Assembly: GCA_964437615.1 (NCBI GenBank)
Contig: CAYTHL010000017.1
Span: 9,995 to 23,499 of the forward strand
Direction: 5' to 3'
Origin: an uncultured Lachnospiraceae bacterium
GTDB taxonomy: Bacteria > Bacillota > Clostridia > Christensenellales > UBA1242
Length of the DNA stretch: 13,505 bases
The notes under the pieces are model-generated. The model saw only the letters and a program-made list of their open reading frames with translations, searched no databases and had not been told where the DNA came from. Shown piece after piece: positions 1-13,505 of this stretch. Each line of letters begins with the position of its first letter. Position 1 is the first letter of the stretch. Both the position numbers and the translations under genes were made by a program.

Positions 1-653
1 ATATTTAAGTTTTCTTTTAGATAAATTTTGCTTGCATTTTCTCTAACTGATACGCTATCTATATTTTTTATTAACTCCATAAGCATGTTTTTATTATCTT
101 GCGATAAATTTAGGTTCCCCATGCTTGGGGCATAAGCAATTTTATATTTTTCATTTGCGCTAGCAAAGTTAAGAAAGAAGTTGTCATCATACTTGCCATT
201 AAAATAATAAGATGCCCAAATAACATCACTTTCGCAAATATAAACATCATAATCTAAATTTGCTTGTTTTAAAGTATCGTAGTTATATTTTGTGGTTGTT
301 AAGCTTAGGTTATCTTTAATAAATCTCTGAAATTTTTTAAATCTTGAGTTATACTTAGATTGAAAAAGAAAAATTATTGCACCCTTATAAAAATTTTTTA
401 AGCTTCCTTTTTTAAAATAATTTTTATAAGGATGTTTATAATTAAAATCTTTATAACTGACAGGAATATAATCAATAATATCACATTTATCAACTAAAGG
501 CTGCCGCTTTAAAAACTGTTGCATGGCATAAGAGTGTAACATTGCGCCGTAGTTTAAATCGGAAGTATTTACATTTAGACTAATTGTTGCTACCTTTAAT
601 TTTTTGCTTGGTAAACTGCTACTATTTTTATCATCTTTTGTTATGTCTTTCAC
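1..653 (-). CDS. polysaccharide pyruvyl transferase family protein (partial; C-terminal part lies beyond the window edge)
   Basis: Absent from the ORF track because it is open at the window edge. My minus-strand translation from GTG (653..651) is stop-free to position 1: VKDITKDDKNSSSLPSKKLKVATISLNVNTSDLNYGAMLHSYAMQQFLKRQPLVDKCDIIDYIP... GGAGAA lies 7 nt upstream of the GTG and overlaps the uppS stop. The N-terminal NYGAML-SYA-QQFL pattern is typical of PS_pyruv_trans (PF04230)-type enzymes. Confidence 0.55.
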   Translation of the reverse strand, partial: MKDITKDDKNSSSLPSKKLKVATISLNVNTSDLNYGAMLHSYAMQQFLKRQPLVDKCDIIDYIPVSYKDFNYKHPYKNYFKKGSLKNFYKGAIIFLFQSKYNSRFKKFQRFIKDNLSLTTTKYNYDTLKQANLDYDVYICESDVIWASYYFNGKYDDNFFLNFASANEKYKIAYAPSMGNLNLSQDNKNMLMELIKNIDSVSVRENASKIYLKENLN

Positions 654-663
654 CGCTATTCTC

Positions 664-1365
664 CTATTTTTCTATTGCGCCAAAACGGCGGTCGCGACTT
701 TGATATTCTAAAAGGGCTTGCTTTATATCTTTCTTTTTAAAGTCTGGCCAAAGAGTTTTGCAAAAATAAAGTTCGGCATAAGCTGCTTGCCATAGCATAA
801 AGTTGCTTAGTCTTTGCTCGCCGCCGGTGCGCACAATTAGGTCTAGTGGGGGTTGGCCATTTGTGTATAAATACTTATCTATATCTTGCTCTGTGACATT
901 TTTTAAATTGGCATCAAGCATTAAATTTATGGCGCGCGTTATTTCTTGTTTGCCGCTATAATTTACGCAAAAATTGAGCGTATGTGCTGTAATGTGCTTA
1001 GTTTCCTCCATAATCTCCACCACTTTTTTAGAAATATCTTCCGGAAATTTTGTATGGTCGCCCATTACATTTAGTCTAACATCTGGATATTTTTTTTGCA
1101 AATCTTTGTTTAAGTAATGTCTAAAAATTTTAATTAAGTAATCTATTTCGGCTTGTGGGCGGTTCCAGTTTTCGGTAGAAAAAGCATAAACACTTACACT
1201 TTTTATGCCATATTTGTAAAAACATTCTTTAACTACTAAATCTAGCGTTTTTTTGCCAGCATTGTGCCCCATAGACCTAACAAGCCCACGCTGTTTTGCC
1301 CACCTACCATTGCCGTCCATAATAAAGCCAATATGATCTGGCACCTTTAGTATCTGCTGTTTCAT
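664..1365 (-). CDS. uppS: undecaprenyl diphosphate synthase (cis-isoprenyl transferase)
   Basis: Motifs HIGFIMDGNGRWA, FSTENWNRP and RTGGEQRLSNFMLWQAAYAELYF. I start at the internal ATG 1365 (MKQQILK...), which has GGAGG about 6 nt upstream. The longer track ORF to 1443 would overlap the upstream gene. Confidence 0.95.
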   Translation of the reverse strand: MKQQILKVPDHIGFIMDGNGRWAKQRGLVRSMGHNAGKKTLDLVVKECFYKYGIKSVSVYAFSTENWNRPQAEIDYLIKIFRHYLNKDLQKKYPDVRLNVMGDHTKFPEDISKKVVEIMEETKHITAHTLNFCVNYSGKQEITRAINLMLDANLKNVTEQDIDKYLYTNGQPPLDLIVRTGGEQRLSNFMLWQAAYAELYFCKTLWPDFKKKDIKQALLEYQSRDRRFGAIEK

Positions 1366-1384
1366 GAAGCCTCCAAAATTTATA

Positions 1385-2200
1385 CTAATTAGATTCTTTT
1401 TCTTGTGTACTACTGTGTAATTTTGGCTGATAGTTAAGTACACTATTGTTTGCAGCTAATTGTTTTGCCATGTCTGTGCCAAGGTCGTACTGCTGCTTAG
1501 TAATTTTGCCCGAATTTAGTAGATAATCCTTATATAGACCTTTGCCGCCCGTTTCTGCACCATTTTCAGCCCCGCCAAACATCGCAAAAGGTGTTTTTAA
1601 AATTATCCACAAATCTCTAAAAAAAGTTACCTTTTGCATGTATTTTCTATCTATTTCAAAGGTATCTTCCCAGCTAGCCTTAGACCTGCCACCGCTTACC
1701 TGATCTAGCCCAGTAAGCCCAGGACGTACCCCATATGTTTCAAGTGCCGCTTCGTCGTAAAAGATAACATCTACAAGCATGCGCGGACGCGGCCCCACTA
1801 TACTCATATCGCCTTTTAAAATGTTAAACAGCTGCGGAAGTTCGTCTATGCTGGTTTTGCGCAAAAATTTGCCAAACTTAGTTATGCGCAAATTGTCTGG
1901 CAGCAAATTGCCGTTTTCGTCTGTTTTGTTGGTCATACTTCTAAACTTGTATAACTTAAATACCTTACCGTCTTTGCCCGGCCTATACTGAACAAAAATG
2001 GCTTTGCCGCCGCCTATAAATATTTTATGTAAAACCCAAGTAATAAGTAGCAACGGCGACAGAATTATTATTGCCAGCAAGGACAAAACAAAATCAAAAA
2101 AACGCTTGAAAACCAGCTGATACAGTGTTTTACGCTGCTTTTTTGCAGGTTTTTGTTGTATCTGAGTATTTTCTACTGATATTTTTTCTTTTTTCTTCAT
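1385..2200 (-). CDS. undecaprenyl-phosphate sugar phosphotransferase (small 'bacterial sugar transferase' family, WbaP/EpsL-like)
   Basis: One N-terminal TM segment (FDFVLSLLAIIILSPLLLITWVL), then KFRSM and SIDELPQLFNILKGDMSIVGPRP, the hallmark of the Bac_transf family. ATG 2200 (MKKKEK) has an AGGGG SD-like site. The track start at 2221 is a GTG with no SD. Confidence 0.9.
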   Translation of the reverse strand: MKKKEKISVENTQIQQKPAKKQRKTLYQLVFKRFFDFVLSLLAIIILSPLLLITWVLHKIFIGGGKAIFVQYRPGKDGKVFKLYKFRSMTNKTDENGNLLPDNLRITKFGKFLRKTSIDELPQLFNILKGDMSIVGPRPRMLVDVIFYDEAALETYGVRPGLTGLDQVSGGRSKASWEDTFEIDRKYMQKVTFFRDLWIILKTPFAMFGGAENGAETGGKGLYKDYLLNSGKITKQQYDLGTDMAKQLAANNSVLNYQPKLHSSTQEKESN

Positions 2201-2239
2201 TATTACCCCTAAGCTGGTCACAAATTTATGTATGTAGGT

Positions 2240-2268
2240 ATATTATCATAATATTTAAACAAAAACAA
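2240..2268 (-). promoter_or_regulatory. candidate promoter of the sugar transferase-uppS-pyruvyl transferase operon
   Basis: On the minus strand: TTGTTT (2268..2263), 17 nt spacer, TGaTAATAT extended -10 (TAATAT = 2245..2240). Confidence 0.35.
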
Positions 2269-2351
2269 GTGAAACTAAAAAATTTGCTAAAAATATATTT
2301 ATTTTTTGCAAAATTGTATCTAAATAACATATTTTTATGCAATAAAAAATC

Positions 2352-2789
2352 TTAACTAAATAAATATTTCTGCTCAGCGCTAGAAAATTTCAGTTTTTTT
2401 GCAAGAGGCGGCAGCAGTTCTATAGACTGCTTTAGACAGTTTAAATTTTTTATAAGCGTTTTCTTAGTCGGCTTGCTACTGCCATTAGAGTTTATAAAAA
2501 AATCTTTGTTTTCTACTTGGCTGCACATTAACCAAAAAGATGCATCCATTAGCCCTAGCCTAAATATCATTTGCTTACACATTTTTAGATGTTTAGCGCA
2601 AAGAGTTTCTGCCTTTTTGCAAATATCTAAAAGCCATTTTTCGGTGCCATTGGTTGCCCAATACTTAAACCAATAATCTAGGCGGACAAAAAGTAAATAT
2701 ACATCTATTAAAGACAATTTTAGCTTACTAATGGCCCCGCCCTCCAAATTTCTAGATGCTAAATTATACGCAGTCAAAATTAAAATCAT
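2352..2789 (-). CDS. hypothetical protein (145 aa), coding status uncertain
   Basis: A long stop-free frame in AT-rich DNA argues for a real gene. However, there is no SD before ATG 2789, which sits about 5 nt after the upstream terminator T-tract, and I recognise no motif. Confidence 0.35.
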   Translation of the reverse strand: MILILTAYNLASRNLEGGAISKLKLSLIDVYLLFVRLDYWFKYWATNGTEKWLLDICKKAETLCAKHLKMCKQMIFRLGLMDASFWLMCSQVENKDFFINSNGSSKPTKKTLIKNLNCLKQSIELLPPLAKKLKFSSAEQKYLFS

Positions 2790-2793
2790 ACAT

Positions 2794-2825
2794 AAAAAAT
2801 GGCAATGACATTTGTAATCATTGCC
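2794..2825 (-). terminator. intrinsic terminator after the membrane-protein gene
   Basis: GGCAATGA (2801-2808) and TCATTGCC (2818-2825) form an 8-bp stem with a 9-nt loop. On the minus strand this is followed by ATTTTTT (2800..2794). Confidence 0.6.
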
Positions 2826-2850
2826 AATCTATCTACTTTGTTTTTTTGCG

Positions 2851-3825
2851 CTAAGTTGTTGATTCTTTGGGCGGTTTGCTGCTTGTGTTTTCCATAGACG
2901 CGTCACTTTCTGCTAGTGATCGCTCGCCAGATTTAGATTGGCTAGGCGTATCGACACATGCGGCTTGCTCGGAAACATTAGCACTGCTGCCAGTTGAGTC
3001 ATCTTTTGTTAGTGTTGGCACCAACTTATTGTAAAGCCACTTTTTCTTTCCGCATAGCCAGCTGATGCTAATTAGCACACAGGAGCCAACGGTAGATACT
3101 GTGCACCAAATAATATCCCACATGGTGTCGATGATGCCAATATCTAGGTACCCGCCCTCGATAGTATAAATTATATTTCCGGACGCATCATAAAGCACGG
3201 TTTTGGCAATGCCGTCTATCATTTCAGTGTGCAAATGGTCGTATTCGGGATACAAATAAAACGACCTTATAGAGTTGACAATTGTATCCTCTTGCATGTC
3301 GTAGCTAGGGTTGGTCTGGTCCATAGTAAATTCAAATAGTTCCCAAGCCACTGCCATAATCATGCTAAAACCAATGGCAAACAAAATGCATGCAAAAAAC
3401 TGCTTTTTTGTTTTTGGCTCGCCAATAAACACCTTCATTATTGCAATACCTAGCAGAACAAAGAATACCCCAAAAATAGCATGAGAAATGTTGTCTAGGT
3501 CTGGAATATATGTATAAACATTGTAGCACGCCCCAATAAAGCCGCTAAGAATAAAGACATAAAGCACAAAGGCAAAAAATGTTGGACACTTTATCTTTAA
3601 ATAATACTCCACCACATAAAATGCTGGCACTACTAGAAAATAGCAAATGCACAAAGCAATATCTCTGCTTCTACCAACTATGCAAAAATATATTGCCGAA
3701 CCCAAGCAAAATGCACCAAAAATAAAGGTTATTATTGCAAGAGGTATATTATTTTTAGTTCTATCTACAAAATAATGCCACAGCCCAGAAATTTGCCTGC
3801 CTATAAATTTAAAAAATTTCTTCAT
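2851..3825 (-). CDS. polytopic integral membrane protein with Ser/Thr/Pro-rich C-terminal tail, family unassigned
   Basis: About 7 hydrophobic segments fall in the first 250 aa. Possible conserved motifs are NISHAIFG, AWELFEF and DTMWDIIW. The tail is hydrophilic (TKDDSTGSSANVSEQ...SKPPKESTT). AAGGA SD precedes ATG 3825. Confidence 0.8.
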   Translation of the reverse strand: MKKFFKFIGRQISGLWHYFVDRTKNNIPLAIITFIFGAFCLGSAIYFCIVGRSRDIALCICYFLVVPAFYVVEYYLKIKCPTFFAFVLYVFILSGFIGACYNVYTYIPDLDNISHAIFGVFFVLLGIAIMKVFIGEPKTKKQFFACILFAIGFSMIMAVAWELFEFTMDQTNPSYDMQEDTIVNSIRSFYLYPEYDHLHTEMIDGIAKTVLYDASGNIIYTIEGGYLDIGIIDTMWDIIWCTVSTVGSCVLISISWLCGKKKWLYNKLVPTLTKDDSTGSSANVSEQAACVDTPSQSKSGERSLAESDASMENTSSKPPKESTT

Positions 3826-3871
3826 AACTTTATCCTTTATTGTATAATACGCTAAACACTTCTAAAATGCA

Positions 3872-3900
3872 ATTTTAGTTATAAGTATATAATTTGTCAA
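3872..3900 (-). promoter_or_regulatory. promoter of the membrane-protein gene
   Basis: On the minus strand: TTGACA (3900..3895), 17 nt spacer, TAAAAT (3877..3872). It lies 18 nt after the xfp stop. Confidence 0.5.
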
Positions 3901-3918
3901 GTTAATAAAAAATATTTC

Positions 3919-6282
3919 TTAAATTTTGGCATTGTAGCTCCACGACGCAATTTCTGGCATATCTACTCCATGCTCTACAATGTATTCGCCGTGCGCTTGT
4001 AGTTTCTGCTCCATTTCTTTTATAACTTTTGCCCTTGTGGCTGGTGCTATCTTTACCGCCCGAGCAATTTGCATAAGCAAATGAAATCTGTCTATCTGGT
4101 TGCGGACACGCATATCAAAGCTAGTGGTAATTGTACCCTCCTCTTTGTACCCGTAAACATCAAAATTTTTGTTCTTGCGTCCGTAAACAAGCTGCTTAAT
4201 TAGCCCCGCATAGCCATGAAAATTAAATAATACTGGCTTGTCAGTGGTAAAAATGGCGTCAAACTGTTCGTCAGTTAGCCCGTCCGGGTGGACATCTTTT
4301 GTAGTTAAAGTAAACAGATTAAGTACATTTACAAACCTTATGCTAATATTTGGCAAATATTTTTTTGCAAGTTCCACAGTTGCCACAGCCTCGGCAGTTG
4401 GAGTATCTCCGCAGCACGCCAAAACTATGTCTGGATTATTTGCATCGCCAGTGCAAGCCCATTGCCACACCCCAATTCCGTCTTTTACAAGTTGCTTAGC
4501 TTGCTGCATATTTAGCCACTGATATGTTGGGTGCTTGCTTGCCGTTATTACATTTATTTGGTTTTTGCTTTTTGTGGCTTTGTCAAAGGTTGCAATAAGC
4601 GTGTTTGCGTCTGCCGGCAAATAAATTTTAACAACGCTTGGTGCTTTGCTCGCCATATGGTCCAAAAATCCCGGGTCTTGATGAGTGTAGCCATTATGGT
4701 CTTGCTGCCAAACATTGCTAGTTAGCACCAAATTTAAGCTACTAATTGGCTTACGCCATGGCAAAGTTTGCGCCACTTTAAGCCATTTGCAGTGCTGCGC
4801 CACCATGCTATCTACAACACGTATAAATGCCTCATAACTGTTAAACATTCCATGTCTGCCGGTAAGCAAATAGCCCTCTAACCAGCCCTCGCAAGCATGT
4901 TCGCTTAAATAACTGTCCATAATTCTGCCGCTATTAGACAAACTAACATCGGTAGAAATTATTGGCTCTTCAAAAGTTCTGTTTTCGGCTTCAAATTGCT
5001 GATAAAGCCTGTTACTCATGGCCTCGTCTGGGCTAAAAGTGCGGTAATTTTGATTGTCTTTGTTTAGTTCAAACAGTCTTTTTATATACCCCCCTAGGGC
5101 AAACATATCCTGCTCTTTTACACTGCCCGGACGCGGTACATTAACAGCAACATCACTAAGTTTAGGCGTAATTATTTCTTTAAGTAGCTTGCCGCCGTTA
5201 GCATGCGGATTTGCTGCTATGCGCTTATCTCCCTTTGGCAAAATTGCACTAATGTGAGGTTTAAGTTTATAGTCGTCGCCAAATAGCTCGTTAGGTTTGT
5301 AGCTTTTTAGCCATTCTTCTAGCAACGCTAAATGCTCGGGCTTGGTCATGCTAATTGGTATTTGATGCGCCCTAAAATGCCCTTCAACTTTATTACCATC
5401 CACCACTTTTGGGCCAGTCCAACCCTTAGGTGTGCGCAAGATAATCATTGGCCAAAGCGGCACTCCACTAATTTTTTTGCTCCTTGCCAAATTCCATATA
5501 GCGTGGATTTTTTCTACACACTTATCCATAGCTTCTGCCATAAGCCTGTGCATCTTTTTGGGGTCGTCGCCTTCCACCAAAATTGGCTGATAGCCATATC
5601 CCTCAAATAGCCTTAGTAGCTGCTCTTTTGGCATTCTAGAAAGCACCGTTGGGTTTGAGATTTTGTAGCCATTTAAGTGTAAAATTGGCAAAACTGCGCC
5701 GTCCCTTGCAGGGTTAACAAACTTATTGCTATGCCAACTGGTAGCAAGAGGCCCCGTTTCAGCCTCGCCATCGCCCACTATTACCACCGCAATTAGGTTT
5801 GGATTATCAAAAATTGCACCATATCCGTGCGCCAAACTGTAGCCAAGTTCTCCGCCCTCGTTTATGCTGCCCGGAGTTTCGGGTGCAACATGGCTGGGGA
5901 TGCCGCCAGCAAAAGAGAACTGCTTGCAAAGCCTAGTAAGCCCCGCCTTGTTTTGCCCAACCTTTGGATAGTACTCGCTGTAAGTACCCTCTAAATAGCA
6001 GTTTGCCACAAAAAAGTTTCCGCCATGACCCGGCCCAGATAGCAAAATTAGGTCTTGATTATACTTAGTTATAACTCTATTTGCATGTGCATAAACAAAG
6101 TTTTGCCCAGCACAAGTTCCCCAATGCCCCACTGGTTTGCTTTTTATATGTTCTGGCTTTAACGGCTCTTTAAGTAGCGGATTATCCTTTAAATATAGCT
6201 GCGCAACAGTAAGATAGTTAGCCGCCCTAAAATACTCGTCCAAGGTTTCTAGATATTCGTTAGATAAATATGCGTCTTTCAT
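3919..6282 (-). CDS. xfp: xylulose-5-phosphate/fructose-6-phosphate phosphoketolase
   Basis: 787 aa. The N-terminus is the typical YFRAANYLTVAQLYLKDNPLL. Also present are GHWGT, EGGELGY and the ThDP-binding VGDGEAETGPLATSWH...LNGYKI motif. AAGGAG SD precedes the start. Confidence 0.97.
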   Translation of the reverse strand: MKDAYLSNEYLETLDEYFRAANYLTVAQLYLKDNPLLKEPLKPEHIKSKPVGHWGTCAGQNFVYAHANRVITKYNQDLILLSGPGHGGNFFVANCYLEGTYSEYYPKVGQNKAGLTRLCKQFSFAGGIPSHVAPETPGSINEGGELGYSLAHGYGAIFDNPNLIAVVIVGDGEAETGPLATSWHSNKFVNPARDGAVLPILHLNGYKISNPTVLSRMPKEQLLRLFEGYGYQPILVEGDDPKKMHRLMAEAMDKCVEKIHAIWNLARSKKISGVPLWPMIILRTPKGWTGPKVVDGNKVEGHFRAHQIPISMTKPEHLALLEEWLKSYKPNELFGDDYKLKPHISAILPKGDKRIAANPHANGGKLLKEIITPKLSDVAVNVPRPGSVKEQDMFALGGYIKRLFELNKDNQNYRTFSPDEAMSNRLYQQFEAENRTFEEPIISTDVSLSNSGRIMDSYLSEHACEGWLEGYLLTGRHGMFNSYEAFIRVVDSMVAQHCKWLKVAQTLPWRKPISSLNLVLTSNVWQQDHNGYTHQDPGFLDHMASKAPSVVKIYLPADANTLIATFDKATKSKNQINVITASKHPTYQWLNMQQAKQLVKDGIGVWQWACTGDANNPDIVLACCGDTPTAEAVATVELAKKYLPNISIRFVNVLNLFTLTTKDVHPDGLTDEQFDAIFTTDKPVLFNFHGYAGLIKQLVYGRKNKNFDVYGYKEEGTITTSFDMRVRNQIDRFHLLMQIARAVKIAPATRAKVIKEMEQKLQAHGEYIVEHGVDMPEIASWSYNAKI

Positions 6283-9283: not shown

Positions 9284-9433
9284 AGTCATGATTAATTTTG
9301 CCCAACAACAGCAACAGTAATTGCATGGGATAACCCGTATGCAACTATTTTGGGTGCTTTGGGGTAAAATATAATAGGTAAATCTCAAGGCACCGCAAGG
9401 TGCTTTTTGCGTTTTATAAAAAGGAGAAAATTT
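9284..9433 (+). promoter_or_regulatory. metG 5' leader with terminator/antiterminator alternative (attenuator; riboswitch or T-box-like class not assignable)
   Basis: The leader is about 150 nt. It has a hairpin TTGCAT-GGG-ATAA-CCC-GT-ATGCAA (9321-9344). The 8-mer GGTGCTTT occurs twice (9353-9360 and 9399-9406), and both copies are complementary to AAGGCACC (9387-9394). Confidence 0.55.
9387..9408 (+). terminator. leader (attenuator) terminator upstream of metG
   Basis: AAGGCACC, a GCAA loop and GGTGCTTT form an 8-bp stem (one G-U) with a GNRA loop. The stem runs into T5 (9404-9408), 26 nt before the start codon. Confidence 0.6.
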
Positions 9434-11440
9434 ATGAATAGTTTTAATGACCCAAGGTTAGATGCCATGATATCTCACCGTCCAGTTTTTGCTAAGCGTG
9501 CCATGATAACCAGCGGCATGCCTAACGGCAACAAATATCTGCATATGGGGCATGCTATGATGGCGGTGCATGCAGACATTTTTGCGCGCTTTATGCGGGA
9601 TAGAATAGGAGCAGAAAATGTGCTGCATGTGTCTGGCACTGACAGTTTTGGCAGCCCCGTAGAAGAAGGTTACAGAAAGGCGGTCGAGGCCAAAGAGTTT
9701 AGTGGCAGCATAAAGGAATTTGCCCTAAGCAAACGAGAATTTCAAAAAAAGACCTTTGACGAGTACCAAATTGGCATAAATTTGTACTCTGGTAGCTGCA
9801 CAGATGAGGCTTTGCCCTTTCATGAAGAAACAGGGGCATGGATTTTTGACACTCTTCTTAAAAATGGCCATTTAAAAAAGCTATCTACCTATCAGTTTTA
9901 CGACCAAAGGCTTGGCTGCTTTTTAAACGGGCGTCAGGTTGTTGGCAAATGTCCAATAGACGGCTGCACGGCCGAGCGCGGATATGCCGACGAGTGCGAC
10001 CTTGGGCATCAGTACATGCCAAGTCAATTAATAGACCCAATCAGCGTGCAGAGCGGCGAAAAACCTATCTTAAAAAAGGTGGACAACTGGTACTTTGACC
10101 TAGATAAGCACACTGCCCTGCTGCAAGACTGGACAAATTATTTAAAATCTAATACACCTACGCGCGACTACATTATTAAAACAATAAATGAGTTTTTAAA
10201 GTTGCCCGAAATTTACATTAAAAAGGATTTTGAGGCAAAAGTTGACAAAATGAGCAGCACTCTGCCGCCATTTATCAAAAAAGGCGACACAAAAAACAGC
10301 TTCACCATTGTTTTTGACAAACTAGAAGACCGTGAAGATGCATGCGAAAAACTTACGGCGGCGGGCATTACCTACCGAACAGGCAAAACCCTTGTGCCGT
10401 TTAGGCTAACAGGGGACTGCCAGTGGGGTCTTAAATGCCCTAAAACTGCTGGGGATAACCTCACTTTTTGGGTGTGGCCAGAAAGTCTTTGGGCGCCAAT
10501 AAGTTTTACTAAGCAGTGGTTAGCCCAAAACGGAAAAAATAAAGACCGTTGGGTGGATTATTGGTGCAGTAAAGACTGCAAAGTCTACCAGTTTATCGGC
10601 GAAGATAACATATATTTTTACGGCCCAGCGCAAACAGCCATGTGGCTATGCATGCAAGGCGAAAATCCAAGCATGGATATACCCACGGGAGGTTTAACAA
10701 TTCCGCAAATTGTCAGTGACAAGCACTTGCTATTTTTGGGCAAGAAAGCCAGCAGTAGCGGAAGCGTAAAACCGCCGCTAGCGCACGAGTTACTAAATTA
10801 TTACACGGCCGAGCAACTGCGCATGCACTTTTTGGGACTTAATGTGGCAAACAATCCAGCAAGTTTTTGCCCTAAGCCATTTAACCCAGAAGCCAAGCCA
10901 GAAGACGCCGACCCCGTTGTTAAAGAAGGCAATCTACTAACCAATGTATTTAACCGTGTTCTGCGCTCTTTGTGCTATACATGGCAAAAGGACTATAGCG
11001 GCATTATGCCTTATGGCGAGCCAAGCGTAGACGTTCAAAAAGAGGCAACTTTGGTGCTGCTAAAATACGAAAAACTGATGAGCGAGCAGAAATTGCACAT
11101 GGTTAGTTACGAACTAGACACATATATAAGAAATATGAACAAACTTTGGGCTAAAAATTCGGCACTTTTTGCAAACGACCAAGGCCTAGAAACACAGACC
11201 ATTGTTGACGAACTACACATGGTGCGCACGGCGCTATTAATGCTCCACCCTGTTGTGCCTGTTGGAACGCAGTTTGTTGCAGACTTTTTGGGGCTAGATA
11301 GCGGCATCTTTAACTGGCAAAATGTAGACAAAAATATTTATGCCTTTGTAAAGGATGCAAAAAATCACAAGCCAACTTTTCTAGAACCTAAAACCGACTT
11401 TTTTAAAAAACACCCAAGCCAATACGAAACCGAGGAATAA
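9434..11440 (+). CDS. metG: methionyl-tRNA synthetase, divergent form
   Basis: It aligns by eye along E. coli MetRS. The HIGH region is YLHMGH and the knuckle region is GKCPIDGC...ADECDLGH. Other matches are FWVWPESLWAPIS, QFIGEDNIYFY and an anticodon-domain NKLWAK. The KMSKS position reads KASSS. ATG 9434 has AAGGAG 7 nt upstream, whereas the track start at 9407 is a TTG inside the terminator. Confidence 0.85.
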   Translation: MNSFNDPRLDAMISHRPVFAKRAMITSGMPNGNKYLHMGHAMMAVHADIFARFMRDRIGAENVLHVSGTDSFGSPVEEGYRKAVEAKEFSGSIKEFALSKREFQKKTFDEYQIGINLYSGSCTDEALPFHEETGAWIFDTLLKNGHLKKLSTYQFYDQRLGCFLNGRQVVGKCPIDGCTAERGYADECDLGHQYMPSQLIDPISVQSGEKPILKKVDNWYFDLDKHTALLQDWTNYLKSNTPTRDYIIKTINEFLKLPEIYIKKDFEAKVDKMSSTLPPFIKKGDTKNSFTIVFDKLEDREDACEKLTAAGITYRTGKTLVPFRLTGDCQWGLKCPKTAGDNLTFWVWPESLWAPISFTKQWLAQNGKNKDRWVDYWCSKDCKVYQFIGEDNIYFYGPAQTAMWLCMQGENPSMDIPTGGLTIPQIVSDKHLLFLGKKASSSGSVKPPLAHELLNYYTAEQLRMHFLGLNVANNPASFCPKPFNPEAKPEDADPVVKEGNLLTNVFNRVLRSLCYTWQKDYSGIMPYGEPSVDVQKEATLVLLKYEKLMSEQKLHMVSYELDTYIRNMNKLWAKNSALFANDQGLETQTIVDELHMVRTALLMLHPVVPVGTQFVADFLGLDSGIFNWQNVDKNIYAFVKDAKNHKPTFLEPKTDFFKKHPSQYETEE

Positions 11441-11772
11441 AAATTTTTTAGCAACACTAAATTGATAAAATTTGCAAACTTATTTTTAGCAAAAACGCAG
11501 AACTTTTAATTGATGCATTTTTGTTGCCAAAAATATACTAACATAAATTGCCTTTATGTAAATAATCACTTTATTTGCAAAATTTTTTACAAATAATTTA
11601 ATAAAATTGTTTGTACTGCCGCAGCTGTGTTATTTATTAATTTTTAATAATTGTTATTCCTCATAGAAATAATTTTAATTTACCAATGTTTCACAAAAAG
11701 TATAAATGTTTAATTGCAAAAATTGATATAAATTTGGGCAATTTTAGTCATATAAACAAATTAAAATGACAA

Positions 11773-11785
11773 AAGTTATTAACAA
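11773..11785. repeat. extra copy of the palindrome half-site AAGTTATTAACAA
   Basis: This 13-mer is identical to the left arm of the 29-nt palindrome 73 nt downstream. Confidence 0.7.
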
Positions 11786-11801
11786 TTTCAACAAAAACTA
11801 T

Positions 11802-11841
11802 GTTAAAAACTACCAACTTTTGTTAATTTTACCCCACTTTT
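11802..11841 (+). repeat. two adjacent related 20-mers (GTTAAAAACTACCAACTTTT / GTTAATTTTACCCCACTTTT)
   Basis: The two units are direct tandem repeats with 13/20 identical positions. A third related unit, GTTAATAACTTCCCCTTTT, lies at 11864-11882 and overlaps the right palindrome arm. Confidence 0.45.
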
Positions 11842-11845
11842 CAAC

Positions 11846-11874
11846 AAGTTATTAACAAATTTTGTTAATAACTT
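11846..11874. repeat. perfect 29-nt palindrome AAGTTATTAACAAA-T-TTTGTTAATAACTT (operator-like)
   Basis: I checked it base by base: 14-bp arms, a single central nucleotide and no mismatch. Confidence 0.9.
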
Positions 11875-11988
11875 CCCCTTTTGCTCAAAAATTCAATTAT
11901 TTTTTACTATTTTACCATTTTGCCCTAAAAATGATTATTGTAGCCCAAAACTACATTTTTATTTGCTGCCATTTAGTGTCCGCCAAGT

Positions 11989-12042
11989 ATGGATAAAAAA
12001 TATTCTTTTATAGCCGGTATAAACAGTTTCTTCTACTGGTAG
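11989..12042 (+). pseudogene. possible 5' remnant of a cas9 gene (17 codons, MDKKYSFIAGINSFFYW*)
   Basis: The first six residues equal the MDKKYS start of S. pyogenes-type Cas9. The following I..NS...W loosely echoes the RuvC-I IGLDIGTNSVGW motif, but the catalytic Asp is absent. There is no SD and a stop follows after 17 codons. It lies 53 nt upstream of the tracrRNA-like promoter. Confidence 0.25.
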
Positions 12043-12094
12043 GCATTTCACTTCCACAACACCTGCTTAAAAACATAAAATATTATTAAAAAGG

Positions 12095-12123
12095 TTGACA
12101 AAATTATACTTATATTGTATTAT
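12095..12123 (+). promoter_or_regulatory. promoter of the tracrRNA-like small RNA
   Basis: TTGACA (12095-12100), 17 nt spacer, TATTAT (12118-12123) directly preceded by TG. Confidence 0.65.
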
Positions 12124-12129
12124 AAAAAT

Positions 12130-12250
12130 GTAACTTATACCATACCAAATTAAAATAGGTTACTAAAATAAAGATAATCGTAAGATTATCGTAGGTAATT
12201 CTTAATGAATTATCCAGTAAGTGGCAGCAACTATGGTTGCCGCCTTTTTT
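12130..12250 (+). ncRNA. tracrRNA-like small RNA (type II CRISPR anti-repeat plus three 3' hairpins)
   Basis: It is bounded by the promoter above and a terminator. Positions 12135-12169 can pair with the repeat at 12319-12351 (about 28 bp by hand). ACTAAAATAAAGA (12162-12174) matches the anti-repeat/nexus junction of the C. jejuni Cas9 tracrRNA as I remember it. The 3' hairpins are GATAATC-GTAA-GATTATC (12173-12190), GTAATTC-TTAAT-GAATTAT (12195-12213) and the terminator. Confidence 0.65.
12223..12250 (+). terminator. intrinsic terminator of the tracrRNA-like RNA
   Basis: GGCAGCAAC, a TATG loop and GTTGCCGCC form a 9-bp stem with one A/C mismatch, followed by T6 (12245-12250). Confidence 0.7.
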
Positions 12251-12260
12251 GTTGTTTAAC

Positions 12261-12288
12261 TTGCCCCTTTATTTTGGTATGGTATAAT
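12261..12288 (+). promoter_or_regulatory. repeat-embedded promoter in R0 (would start the crRNA inside the spacer)
   Basis: TTGCCC (12261-12266), 16 nt spacer, TGgTATAAT (12280-12288). The predicted start near 12293-12296 would leave about 23-26 nt of spacer followed by R1. Confidence 0.55.
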
Positions 12289-12343
12289 TGTAAGTGCCCC
12301 GTTTCGCCAAGCAATGTCGTTTTAGTTCCCCTTTAAATTTGTT

Positions 12344-12352
12344 TGCTATAAT
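12344..12352 (+). promoter_or_regulatory. extended -10 element embedded in R1
   Basis: TGcTATAAT sits at the 3' end of the repeat with no good -35. This matches the repeat-internal promoters described for type II-C arrays. Confidence 0.4.
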
Positions 12353-12414
12353 TTTTACCCTCATAACAATATAAAAACGATGCTTTAGGCTTTTTGTTGC
12401 AAAATTTTTCCCTA

Positions 12415-12443
12415 TTGACAGAAAGAAAAAAGTATGATACAAT
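12415..12443 (+). promoter_or_regulatory. promoter of the 345-aa gene
   Basis: TTGACA (12415-12420), 17 nt spacer, TGaTACAAT (12435-12443). AAGGGAG (12454-12460) lies 7 nt before ATG 12468. Confidence 0.65.
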
Positions 12444-12467: not shown

Positions 12468-13505
12468 ATGGAATCTATTAATTTAGAATCATCAATTAAT
12501 AATTACCTAAAATTAAAGTTAAAAGAACAAAAAATAAATAAAGCCATAATGAAAATTACTGACGAGATTGGCACTAATAATTCTCTTCAAAAGATAATGG
12601 AATCTCATGAAATTATTGATAAGTCTGCTAATGAGGCTTTTGCAAAGGATTGCGAACCCGTTATGGATCGGTTAAATCAATATGTTAAAATAATTGTAAC
12701 CCCAGGGGTTGAGTATAACTGTAAAAATATTATTGTTAATCTTATGGGCTCAGATTATCTTTTGGCTAATTTTCCAAGTGAATCTAATGTTTTATATCTA
12801 GATGAAAAATCAACAGCAGCGCTAAGCAAATTTGAACAAATAGTAAATCTTTCACCAGAAGTTCAGTTGGGTGTTTTGGGTATGAAAATGAAAAAATATT
12901 ATGAGAATATTTGTTTTGATAATGAGGAATATGAATTAAAAGTTAAAATATATAATAGCCAAAAATTTCCAGCCGATAATAAGGTCACCCGCCATCTTTT
13001 TAAAAGTAAACTAAGGTATAAAGACAGACTTCAAGAAGAAATTAATAACTACAAAGTTTCTCATGATTATTATGAAGAAAATAAAGAAACAATTAAAGCT
13101 GTGCTTAATGATGATAAAATTGTGCTAAGAAAATTAATTGATGCAAATATTGCTAAGTTTTATGAGATAAAAAAATTAATTGAAGAATTTTGTGAACTTC
13201 GCAAGAAACATTTTGAATCTAAGGAGTATAAAGAGTCCTCGCAAAAATTAGAATTTGCAGTTCAGGCAGAAAATAAAAAGAAAGAATTACAAAAAAATTT
13301 AGGTGTAATTAAAAAACAGAGTAAAAATGAGTTTGAAAATATTGAAAATTTAGCTATATCATGCGCTAAAGAAAATACAAACAAGGTAATGGATGTTTTA
13401 CAATTAATAGATGAATCTAAGTTATCAAAAGAAGACAAAGACAAGCTAAAAGATCATGTTTATTCTTCATTGTCTTCAAATTTGGTAAATGTATATAACG
13501 GATAG
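12468..13505 (+). CDS. hypothetical Lys/Glu/Asn-rich, probably coiled-coil protein (345 aa), no recognisable family
   Basis: The ORF is complete, and its TAG stop is the last codon of the window. It has a strong SD and promoter. A 345-codon open frame in DNA this AT-rich is very unlikely by chance. No signal peptide, TM segment or catalytic motif is recognisable. Confidence 0.8.
   Translation: MESINLESSINNYLKLKLKEQKINKAIMKITDEIGTNNSLQKIMESHEIIDKSANEAFAKDCEPVMDRLNQYVKIIVTPGVEYNCKNIIVNLMGSDYLLANFPSESNVLYLDEKSTAALSKFEQIVNLSPEVQLGVLGMKMKKYYENICFDNEEYELKVKIYNSQKFPADNKVTRHLFKSKLRYKDRLQEEINNYKVSHDYYEENKETIKAVLNDDKIVLRKLIDANIAKFYEIKKLIEEFCELRKKHFESKEYKESSQKLEFAVQAENKKKELQKNLGVIKKQSKNEFENIENLAISCAKENTNKVMDVLQLIDESKLSKEDKDKLKDHVYSSLSSNLVNVYNG

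Follow-up and report, generated by a model that had tools for sequence, protein, structure and literature searches.

Repeats that end in an extended -10 promoter box characterise the type II-C CRISPR-Cas9 systems (CRISPR, clusters of regularly interspaced short palindromic repeats) of Campylobacter jejuni and Neisseria meningitidis, and Zhang and colleagues are said to have reported in 2013 that the N. meningitidis system has promoters inside its repeats. Here we describe a cassette with the same repeat ending in contig CAYTHL010000017.1 (assembly GCA_964437615.1) of an uncultured Lachnospiraceae bacterium, within a stretch of 13,505 nucleotides that was analysed as a whole and is called the window below. 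At 12095-12352 the window carries, in this order and all on the same strand, a promoter, the gene of a trans-activating CRISPR RNA (tracrRNA) and a repeat-spacer-repeat mini-array, with no cas gene in view. We regard the locus as probably, though by no means certainly, a vestige, without cas genes, of a type II-C CRISPR-Cas9 locus in the genome of an uncultured member of the Clostridia.

In C. jejuni, CRISPR RNAs (crRNAs) start inside the spacer from a promoter in each repeat (Dugar et al. 2013, PMC3656092). The C. jejuni repeat, GTTTTAGTCCCTTTTTAAATTTCTTTATGGTAAAAT, starts with GTTTTAGT, as does the second repeat of the window (R1), and the tracrRNA junction ACTAAAATAAAGA is identical in the two, so that the resemblance pointed out in an earlier note, made from the letters of this DNA, was correct. 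In both cases the tracrRNA gene and the array are adjacent on one strand; however, the C. jejuni order is array, tracrRNA and convergent cas genes, whereas in the window the tracrRNA precedes the array and cas genes are missing. The overall sequence similarity of the window is lower to C. jejuni than to a family of Clostridia loci, and the nearest relatives are type II-C loci of Christensenellaceae and other Clostridia, not those of Campylobacter. Degenerated loci are known from C. jejuni strains in which cas9 was lost or inactivated and CRISPR parts were left behind; in one strain, low-G+C genes take the place of the locus (PMC3656092). Those loci have a known intact reference, whereas no intact counterpart was found for the locus in the window.

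Two further kinds of described system bear comparison. The orphan CRISPR2 locus of Enterococcus faecalis, a type II array, lacks cas genes but can serve a Cas9 whose gene lies at another place (PMC4894674, PMC4580645). It has multiple spacers and is conserved throughout the species, in contrast to the one spacer, worn repeats and private tracrRNA of the window. We know of no tracrRNA gene belonging to CRISPR2 itself. Phage RNA anti-CRISPRs, viral single-guide RNAs and viral small CRISPR-associated RNAs (scaRNAs) likewise stand alone, away from cas9 (bioRxiv 10.64898/2026.06.01.729453), but they occur in prophages beside anti-CRISPR genes, a setting not seen in the window, and in form they are guide-repeat-anti-repeat folds of a single molecule or repeat mimics with a short guide, which are not seen there either.

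The features of the cassette are as follows.

12095..12123, + strand: tracrRNA promoter, TTGACA-17-TATTAT (consensus scan, 11/12 matches)
12130..12250, + strand: tracrRNA gene of ~120 nt, predicted to start ~7 nt past the -10 box (fold, covariance model)
12135..12169, + strand: anti-repeat TTATACCATACCAAATTAAAATAGGTTACTAAAAT, 35 nt (its reverse complement aligns to the family repeat with a score of 46)
12173..12243, + strand: tracrRNA tail, with hairpins at 12173-12190 and 12194-12214 and a terminator hairpin at 12221-12243 (fold, terminator scan)
12245..12250, + strand: T6 tract after the terminator hairpin (terminator scan)
12254..12288, + strand: first repeat (R0), with a worn 5' half and an intact 3' half that carries an extended -10 box (alignment score 48)
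12280..12288, + strand: extended -10 box TGGTATAAT at the 3' end of R0 (sequence, promoter scan)
12289..12318, + strand: single spacer, 30 nt, 53% G+C (sequence, composition)
12319..12352, + strand: second repeat (R1), with an intact 5' half GTTTTAGTTCCCC and a worn 3' half ending in TGCTATAAT (score 48.5)

Nearly all of the sequence features proposed in the earlier note were recovered by the scans and folds at the coordinates given there, among them the TTGACA/TATTAT promoter, the RNA of about 120 nt with its hairpin terminator and T6 tract, the tracrRNA layout of an anti-repeat followed by three hairpins, and the TGnTATAAT endings of the repeats. The repeat-spacer-repeat unit does lie on the same strand as the tracrRNA gene, but R0, when best aligned, starts 3 nt past the T-tract and not 4 nt as had been thought.

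To place the cassette, a degenerate repeat pattern was scanned against reference genomes, one per species, which returned true arrays in metagenome-assembled genomes (MAGs) of uncultured Christensenellaceae, Christensenella, Clostridia and Eubacteriales, along with arrays of C. jejuni and Helicobacter. The Clostridia arrays, from at least 10 MAG loci, hold 4-22 copies of a 36-nt repeat composed of GTTTTAGTTCCCTTTT, 5-7 variable positions and TGGTATGGTATAAT; the full repeats inside each genuine array are identical, with a single-base difference in two loci (L126 and L136 in our numbering). These arrays adjoin genes for a Cas9 of ~1100 aa with HNH and RuvC domains, Cas1 and Cas2, and therefore belong to type II-C systems. 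The tracrRNA gene of the family lies directly upstream of cas9 behind a TTGACA-type promoter. Its short 5' arm (GTAAC or GCAAC) pairs with GGTTAC or GGTTGC, and past this arm it continues as ATACCATACCAA...AGGTTNC.AAA.AAGGG and then as a two-hairpin tail that runs into the ribosome-binding site of cas9. The layout is tracrRNA-cas9-cas1-cas2, with the array beyond cas2 on the opposite strand (convergent). Wear of the 5' half, with the 3' promoter kept, is common in the first, cas-distal repeat (L129, L144, L139 and L126), and the last, cas-proximal repeat of genuine arrays is perfect.

With these type II-C loci (L134, L136, L138, L146, L150, L151, L153, L157 and L168) the window shares the repeat family and its 3' extended -10 box, the tracrRNA promoter, the 5' GTAAC stem, the anti-repeat and the AAAATAA junction, as well as a 65-66-nt array unit and a first repeat worn in the half in which the cas-distal repeat of the family is worn. 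It differs from them in having no cas9-cas1-cas2, in a tail of three hairpins of unrelated sequence instead of two hairpins running into the cas9 ribosome-binding site, and in an array that lies on the same strand 3 nt past the terminator instead of ~5 kb away on the opposite strand. Judged by sequence, each element of the cassette is homologous to the matching part of the genuine cas9-cas1-cas2 loci, which supports the earlier proposal of a type II-C tracrRNA and a one-spacer mini-array with promoters inside its repeats.

Two side observations concern the genuine loci themselves. In four of them the cas9 start codon and its ribosome-binding site lie within ~20-50 nt past the T-tract of the tracrRNA gene (L138 5835-5900, L153 330-383, L157 3680-3730, L168 3150-3205), and read-through from the tracrRNA promoter may help to express cas9 there. 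In L136, a contig of RUG767, the Cas9 frame is split into 788 + 378 aa, either as a frameshifted pseudogene or through an assembly error, and the repeats of the array beside it are non-identical.

The RNA predicted at 12130-12250 folds with -32.8 kcal/mol (z -4.9) and its tail with -26.4 kcal/mol (z -5.4), with 0/200 shuffles as good in each case, and the hairpins at 12173-12190 and 12194-12214 are perfect stems. A covariance model, which the earlier note had suggested as a check and which was built from 8 genuine tracrRNAs with the window left out, matches 12128-12206 with 35.8 bits (E ~1e-5); its second match in the window is the reverse complement of R0. In blastn, 12095-12171 aligns with the tracrRNA region of L146 (79% over 77 nt, E 3e-11). 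In genuine loci the anti-repeat has a TTGACA/TTGACT box equally far upstream, and the 5' half of the window tracrRNA is homologous to the genuine ones in its -35 box, GTAAC 5' stem and anti-repeat, with a match that runs from the -35 box through AAAATAA and keeps all positions that are invariant in the family. Past AAAATAA, the tail showed no match to the family tail in either the alignment or the covariance-model alignment: its sequence, AAAGATAATCGTAAGATTATCGTAGGTAATTCTTAATGAATTATCC, does not align with the family tail, GGG..CCCGAAAAGCTCTRTCCC..GGGAYATCTTTT, and forms three hairpins against two in the family. Rfam returned nothing for the window at the gathering score.

In the family, the 5' arm of the tracrRNA (L153, L146, L157, L138, L136 and L151) forms a stem with the anti-repeat at its GGTTAC bulge region, in which one change is compensatory (GTAAC/GTTAC in some, GCAAC/GTTGC in others). 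In the window this 5' stem is kept as 9 bp between 12130-12138 and 12155-12163. A metagenome scan for the tracrRNA junction gave 3 matches, all of them chance occurrences inside unrelated sequence.

The repeats point to the same family. Against the family consensus repeat, high scores occur at three sites of the window and nowhere else, with 48 at R0, 48.5 at R1 and 46 at the anti-repeat, read on the minus strand, over a background of 2606 windows with a mean of 15.5, a standard deviation of 3.8 and a maximum of 34.5. The 34-nt repeat of the cassette is GTTTTAGTTCCCCTTTAWWTTTGGTATGGTATAAT, and both R0 and R1 fit the family repeat GTTTTAGTTCCC...TGGTATGGTATAAT. R1 keeps the 5' block of the family, beginning with GTTTTAGT as the earlier note had seen, R0 keeps the 3' block, and the anti-repeat, as the complement, is a third copy. 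An extended -10 box closes both repeats (R0, TGGTATAAT; R1, TGCTATAAT), all repeats of the family have the same box, and a promoter scan of R0 gives TTGCCC-16-TATAAT with TG. The starts of R0 and R1 are 65 nt apart, compared with a 66-nt unit in genuine arrays, and the array consists of two repeats and one spacer, compared with 4-22 copies. A weak match of R1 to the Rfam family CRISPR-DR34, a Neisseria type II-C repeat, lies below the gathering score of 35 (22.8 bits, E 0.1). A third worn repeat at ~12381-12443, suggested by the first direct-repeat scan, was rejected, its score against the family repeat being only 17, a background value.

Wear is evident in both copies. R0 and R1 each carry ~3 changes at positions that are invariant across the family, and they are 81% alike over 26 nt, with insertions or deletions elsewhere. 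R0, described before as degenerate, does hold an exact 15-nt complement of the anti-repeat, within 3' 20 nt that are 95% complementary to 12135-12154, and its duplex with the tracrRNA reaches -26.7 kcal/mol (z -4.7). R1 pairs with the tracrRNA too, but less well than the proposed 28 of about 33 positions: we count ~26 pairs with five loops or bulges, and a duplex of -13.8 kcal/mol (z -2.7), for which the comparison with shuffled sequence called for in the earlier note gave 8/500 shuffles as good. Genuine repeat:tracrRNA pairs reach -37 to -42 kcal/mol, and intact repeats of other genomes placed on the window anti-repeat reach -31 to -33 kcal/mol.

No convincing target of the spacer was found. 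An exact 18-nt match of its 3' end to an IMG/VR contig (3300021387_000895, L167 4658-4675) does not extend and is, by a rough estimate, about what chance would give (the bases next to it are GCAAGTG), and 12-mer matches in L001 and L094 are likewise chance. The seed at the 3' end of the spacer has no match of at least 9 nt elsewhere in the window.

Some further observations concern repeat-like sequences. The 5' flank of R0, TTTTGTTGTTTAACTTGCCCCTTT (12246-12272), resembles 11860-11881, where the right arm of a palindrome (see below) is followed by CCCCTTT; the likeness is weak, with 21/1000 shuffled queries as good, and may mark a recombination junction or chance. A solitary repeat of the C. 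jejuni type in Campylobacter sp. MIT 97-5078 (L158 2895-2930), with no second repeat, tracrRNA junction or Cas9-sized open reading frame (ORF) within 8 kb, is another possible CRISPR leftover. Five cyanobacterial genomes, from Okeania, Trichodesmium and other MAGs (L127, L133, L148, L160 and L163), share a 35-mer, GTTTTAGT[T/A]CC[T/A]ATTTCTGAGAGAGTTGCTAAAAT, with one copy per locus; it is a conserved element with no nearby direct or inverted partner.

The absence of cas genes, claimed before on inspection, was borne out by tblastn with Cas9, Cas1 and Cas2 of genuine loci, which gave no credible match in the 13.5 kb among the matches listed; the span covered amounts to 12 kb upstream and 1.15 kb downstream of the cassette. 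The lowest E among the matches listed was 0.06, to an unrelated ORF, and the Cas9 queries (at least 5) gave E of 0.4 or higher. Cas1 and Cas2, both present in the genuine relatives, had no match in the window among those listed, and no remnants of Cas pseudogenes were found in the 650-nt region at 11441-12094. In a Cas9 profile search the best 120 matches were dominated by one abundant species and none lay on the contig of the window. Neither a partner Cas9 nor a second locus sharing the window tail was found in the searches made.

The cassette lies in ~1 kb of AT-rich (26% G+C) non-coding DNA between a methionyl-tRNA synthetase gene (9407-11440, +) and an ORF of 345 aa (12468-13505, +); the remaining ORFs of the window are housekeeping genes or have no assigned family. 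In the closest relative, whose synthetase is 81% identical, synteny extends at least ~11 kb upstream, to the point where the contig of the relative starts, and ends exactly at the synthetase stop codon, past which helix-turn-helix (HTH) and NUDIX genes are found instead. The intergenic DNA past the NUDIX gene is homologous to 11706-11815 of the window, and three independent contigs (L001-L003) end there, ~200-250 nt past the NUDIX gene. More distant relatives (synthetase 69-74% identical) have other genes past the synthetase and none has a tracrRNA; in the visible part of all relatives examined, no cas genes or tracrRNA lie near the synthetase gene. No meaningful matches to phages or plasmids were obtained by blastn, and IMG/VR, scanned with a loose pattern as well as with the repeat and the anti-repeat, yielded nothing or single chance matches. 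The segment is lineage-specific, and nothing in the part seen marks a mobile element.

The position after the synthetase gene differs in every relative examined, and in one of them (L169 3955-4043, synthetase 74% identical) a tRNA-Leu gene follows directly. A perfect 14-nt palindrome, AAGTTATTAACAAA / TTTGTTAATAACTT, with an extra half-site is present at 11846-11874 and 11773-11788 of the window and is conserved at the contig ends of the closest relative (L001 12740-12796, L002 6633-6696), the spot at which three independent assemblies break, with an XRE-type HTH gene nearby; it may be an operator. Downstream of the cassette, the 345-aa product has no homologue except itself among 5.8 billion proteins and no Pfam or PHROGs match. 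It is rich in lysine and glutamate and mostly helical, and its structure model (mean predicted local distance difference test score, pLDDT, 54.5) is too poor for a structure search. A strong promoter, TTGACA-17-TACAAT with TG, lies ahead of this ORF at 12415-12443, and the -10 box of R1 likewise points into it.

Taken as a vestige, the locus would have been acquired horizontally, probably, since it lies in a lineage-specific low-G+C segment just past the synthetase gene, and would then have lost its cas operon along with the younger part of the array. What survives would be the tracrRNA gene, together with the promoter and terminator that belong to it, and directly behind it the oldest array end, namely R0, the spacer and R1. 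By sequence, R0 looks like an ordinary terminal repeat of an old array end: wear in the 5' half is normal for a cas-distal first repeat, and the surviving piece would therefore be the old end. The worn 3' half of R1, on the other hand, is abnormal for a working array. For C. jejuni, degenerated CRISPR loci and a locus replaced by low-G+C genes have been described (PMC3656092). The tracrRNA and a crRNA are probably still transcribed. The tracrRNA would be made from 12130, driven by the promoter at 12095-12123, and would end at the T-tract, while the -10 box of R0 is predicted to start a crRNA ~5 bases into the spacer, near 12293-12296, as in C. jejuni (PMC3656092). Such a crRNA of ~60 nt would comprise a guide of ~23-26 nt and R1. 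With no Cas9 in cis and poor pairing of R1, the pair would presumably confer no immunity. The earlier note had left the choice between an RNA-only module and a freshly decayed locus; the evidence leans towards decay, but with repeats this worn and R1 pairing so poorly, the decay does not appear fresh.

Several observations weigh against a vestige. The 5' half of the tracrRNA keeps 26/26 family-invariant positions, compared with ~10% change in the repeats; under equal drift the chance of this is ~0.07, which is only suggestive of constraint on the tracrRNA. The tail has three unbroken hairpins (z -5.4), and the survivors, the R0 promoter and the 5' handle of R1, are exactly what one crRNA unit needs. 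Moreover, no single deletion from the family layout or the C. jejuni layout gives the order seen in the window, so that the layout of the parent locus has not been retrieved, and the window tail, likewise, is not derivable from the family layout by one deletion. A cas operon could also lie in the unseen 10.8 kb of the 24,353-bp source contig or elsewhere in the genome.

These points bear on the idea that selection keeps the cassette. Since the surviving parts match the needs of a single crRNA unit, it stays conceivable, though we think it unlikely, that this is a maintained RNA-only guide cassette, whose tracrRNA and single crRNA are loaded on a Cas9 encoded elsewhere in the genome or contig. 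The promoter, anti-repeat invariants, three hairpins and terminator are all intact, the promoter in R0 and the 12 nt at the start of R1 are intact too, and the tail is unlike that of the family, as expected if it served another Cas9. In the engineered single-guide RNA of CjCas9, whose repeat is truncated, these 12 nt are the part kept. A precedent exists in E. faecalis, where CRISPR2 works with CRISPR1-Cas9 in trans (PMC4894674, PMC4580645). However, R1 pairs far below genuine pairs (z only -2.7), R0 and R1 differ from each other, unlike the repeats of working arrays, and neither a partner Cas9, a second locus with the window tail nor a spacer target turned up in the searches. Slightly more doubtful is the wider proposal of a cas-less cassette kept by selection, in which a private three-hairpin tracrRNA and a self-promoted crRNA would arm or titrate a Cas9 encoded elsewhere.

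Other functions appear more remote. The module sits in a lineage-specific low-G+C segment beside a gene found nowhere else, and in a read-through transcript the anti-repeat and R0 would fold together with -54 kcal/mol, which would suit a cargo of a mobile element whose tracrRNA and repeat act as a decoy that soaks up or misdirects the Cas9 of the host; such elements are documented for types II-A and II-C (bioRxiv 10.64898/2026.06.01.729453). We nevertheless consider this improbable: no phage or mobile-element genes were seen in the window, where the four ORFs that lack a Pfam family, including the one directly downstream of the cassette, have no PHROGs match and no tRNA genes were found, and the family repeat and tracrRNA were missing from IMG/VR, as were matches to phages or plasmids. 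In addition, only ~5 nt separate the predicted RNA start at 12130 from the anti-repeat at 12135, with no repeat-like site upstream, so that no single-guide fold can form and the layout is not that of viral single-guide or tracr-L RNAs. A worn repeat beside a tracrRNA also matches the pattern described for scaRNAs in Francisella novicida and by Feussner et al. 2026, and the Cas9-proximal handle of R1 is kept, yet it is very improbable that the two RNAs form a regulatory pair of the scaRNA type, in which the worn R1 and its guide direct Cas9 to repress an endogenous promoter, given a predicted guide of full length (23-26 nt versus ~11-15 nt), a spacer 3'-end seed with no match of at least 9 nt elsewhere in the window, and a Cas9 that is not in view. 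As for the idea that the likeness is due to chance, or to a generic intergenic repeat that has nothing to do with CRISPR, AT-rich DNA favours promoter-like and T-rich motifs, and Rfam gave no match at its gathering score. This explanation, the generic form of which the earlier note had itself raised as a possible undoing of its proposal, is refuted to the point of being negligible by three sites scoring 46-48.5 against a background maximum of 34.5, by the covariance model (E ~1e-5) and blastn (E 3e-11) matches, and by the linkage of the repeat family to cas9.

Whichever account holds, pipelines that need cas genes or at least 3 repeats would miss the cassette. If it is a vestige, it would be a clean example of type II-C decay, in which the cas operon and the young array end are gone and the tracrRNA gene and the old end are kept. 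The cassette also points to a Clostridia lineage of type II-C systems whose tracrRNA tail and gene order were not found in the ~10 related loci examined. Were the selected cassette real, it would stand as the counterpart, chromosomal or mobile, of the single-guide and scaRNA decoys recently described for phages, but one built from a full tracrRNA and a mini-array. If the tracrRNA is under selection, it would join the emerging stand-alone Cas9 RNAs, which include orphan tracrRNAs, viral single-guide RNAs and scaRNAs, as a candidate for a trans-acting or anti-Cas9 function in gut Clostridia.

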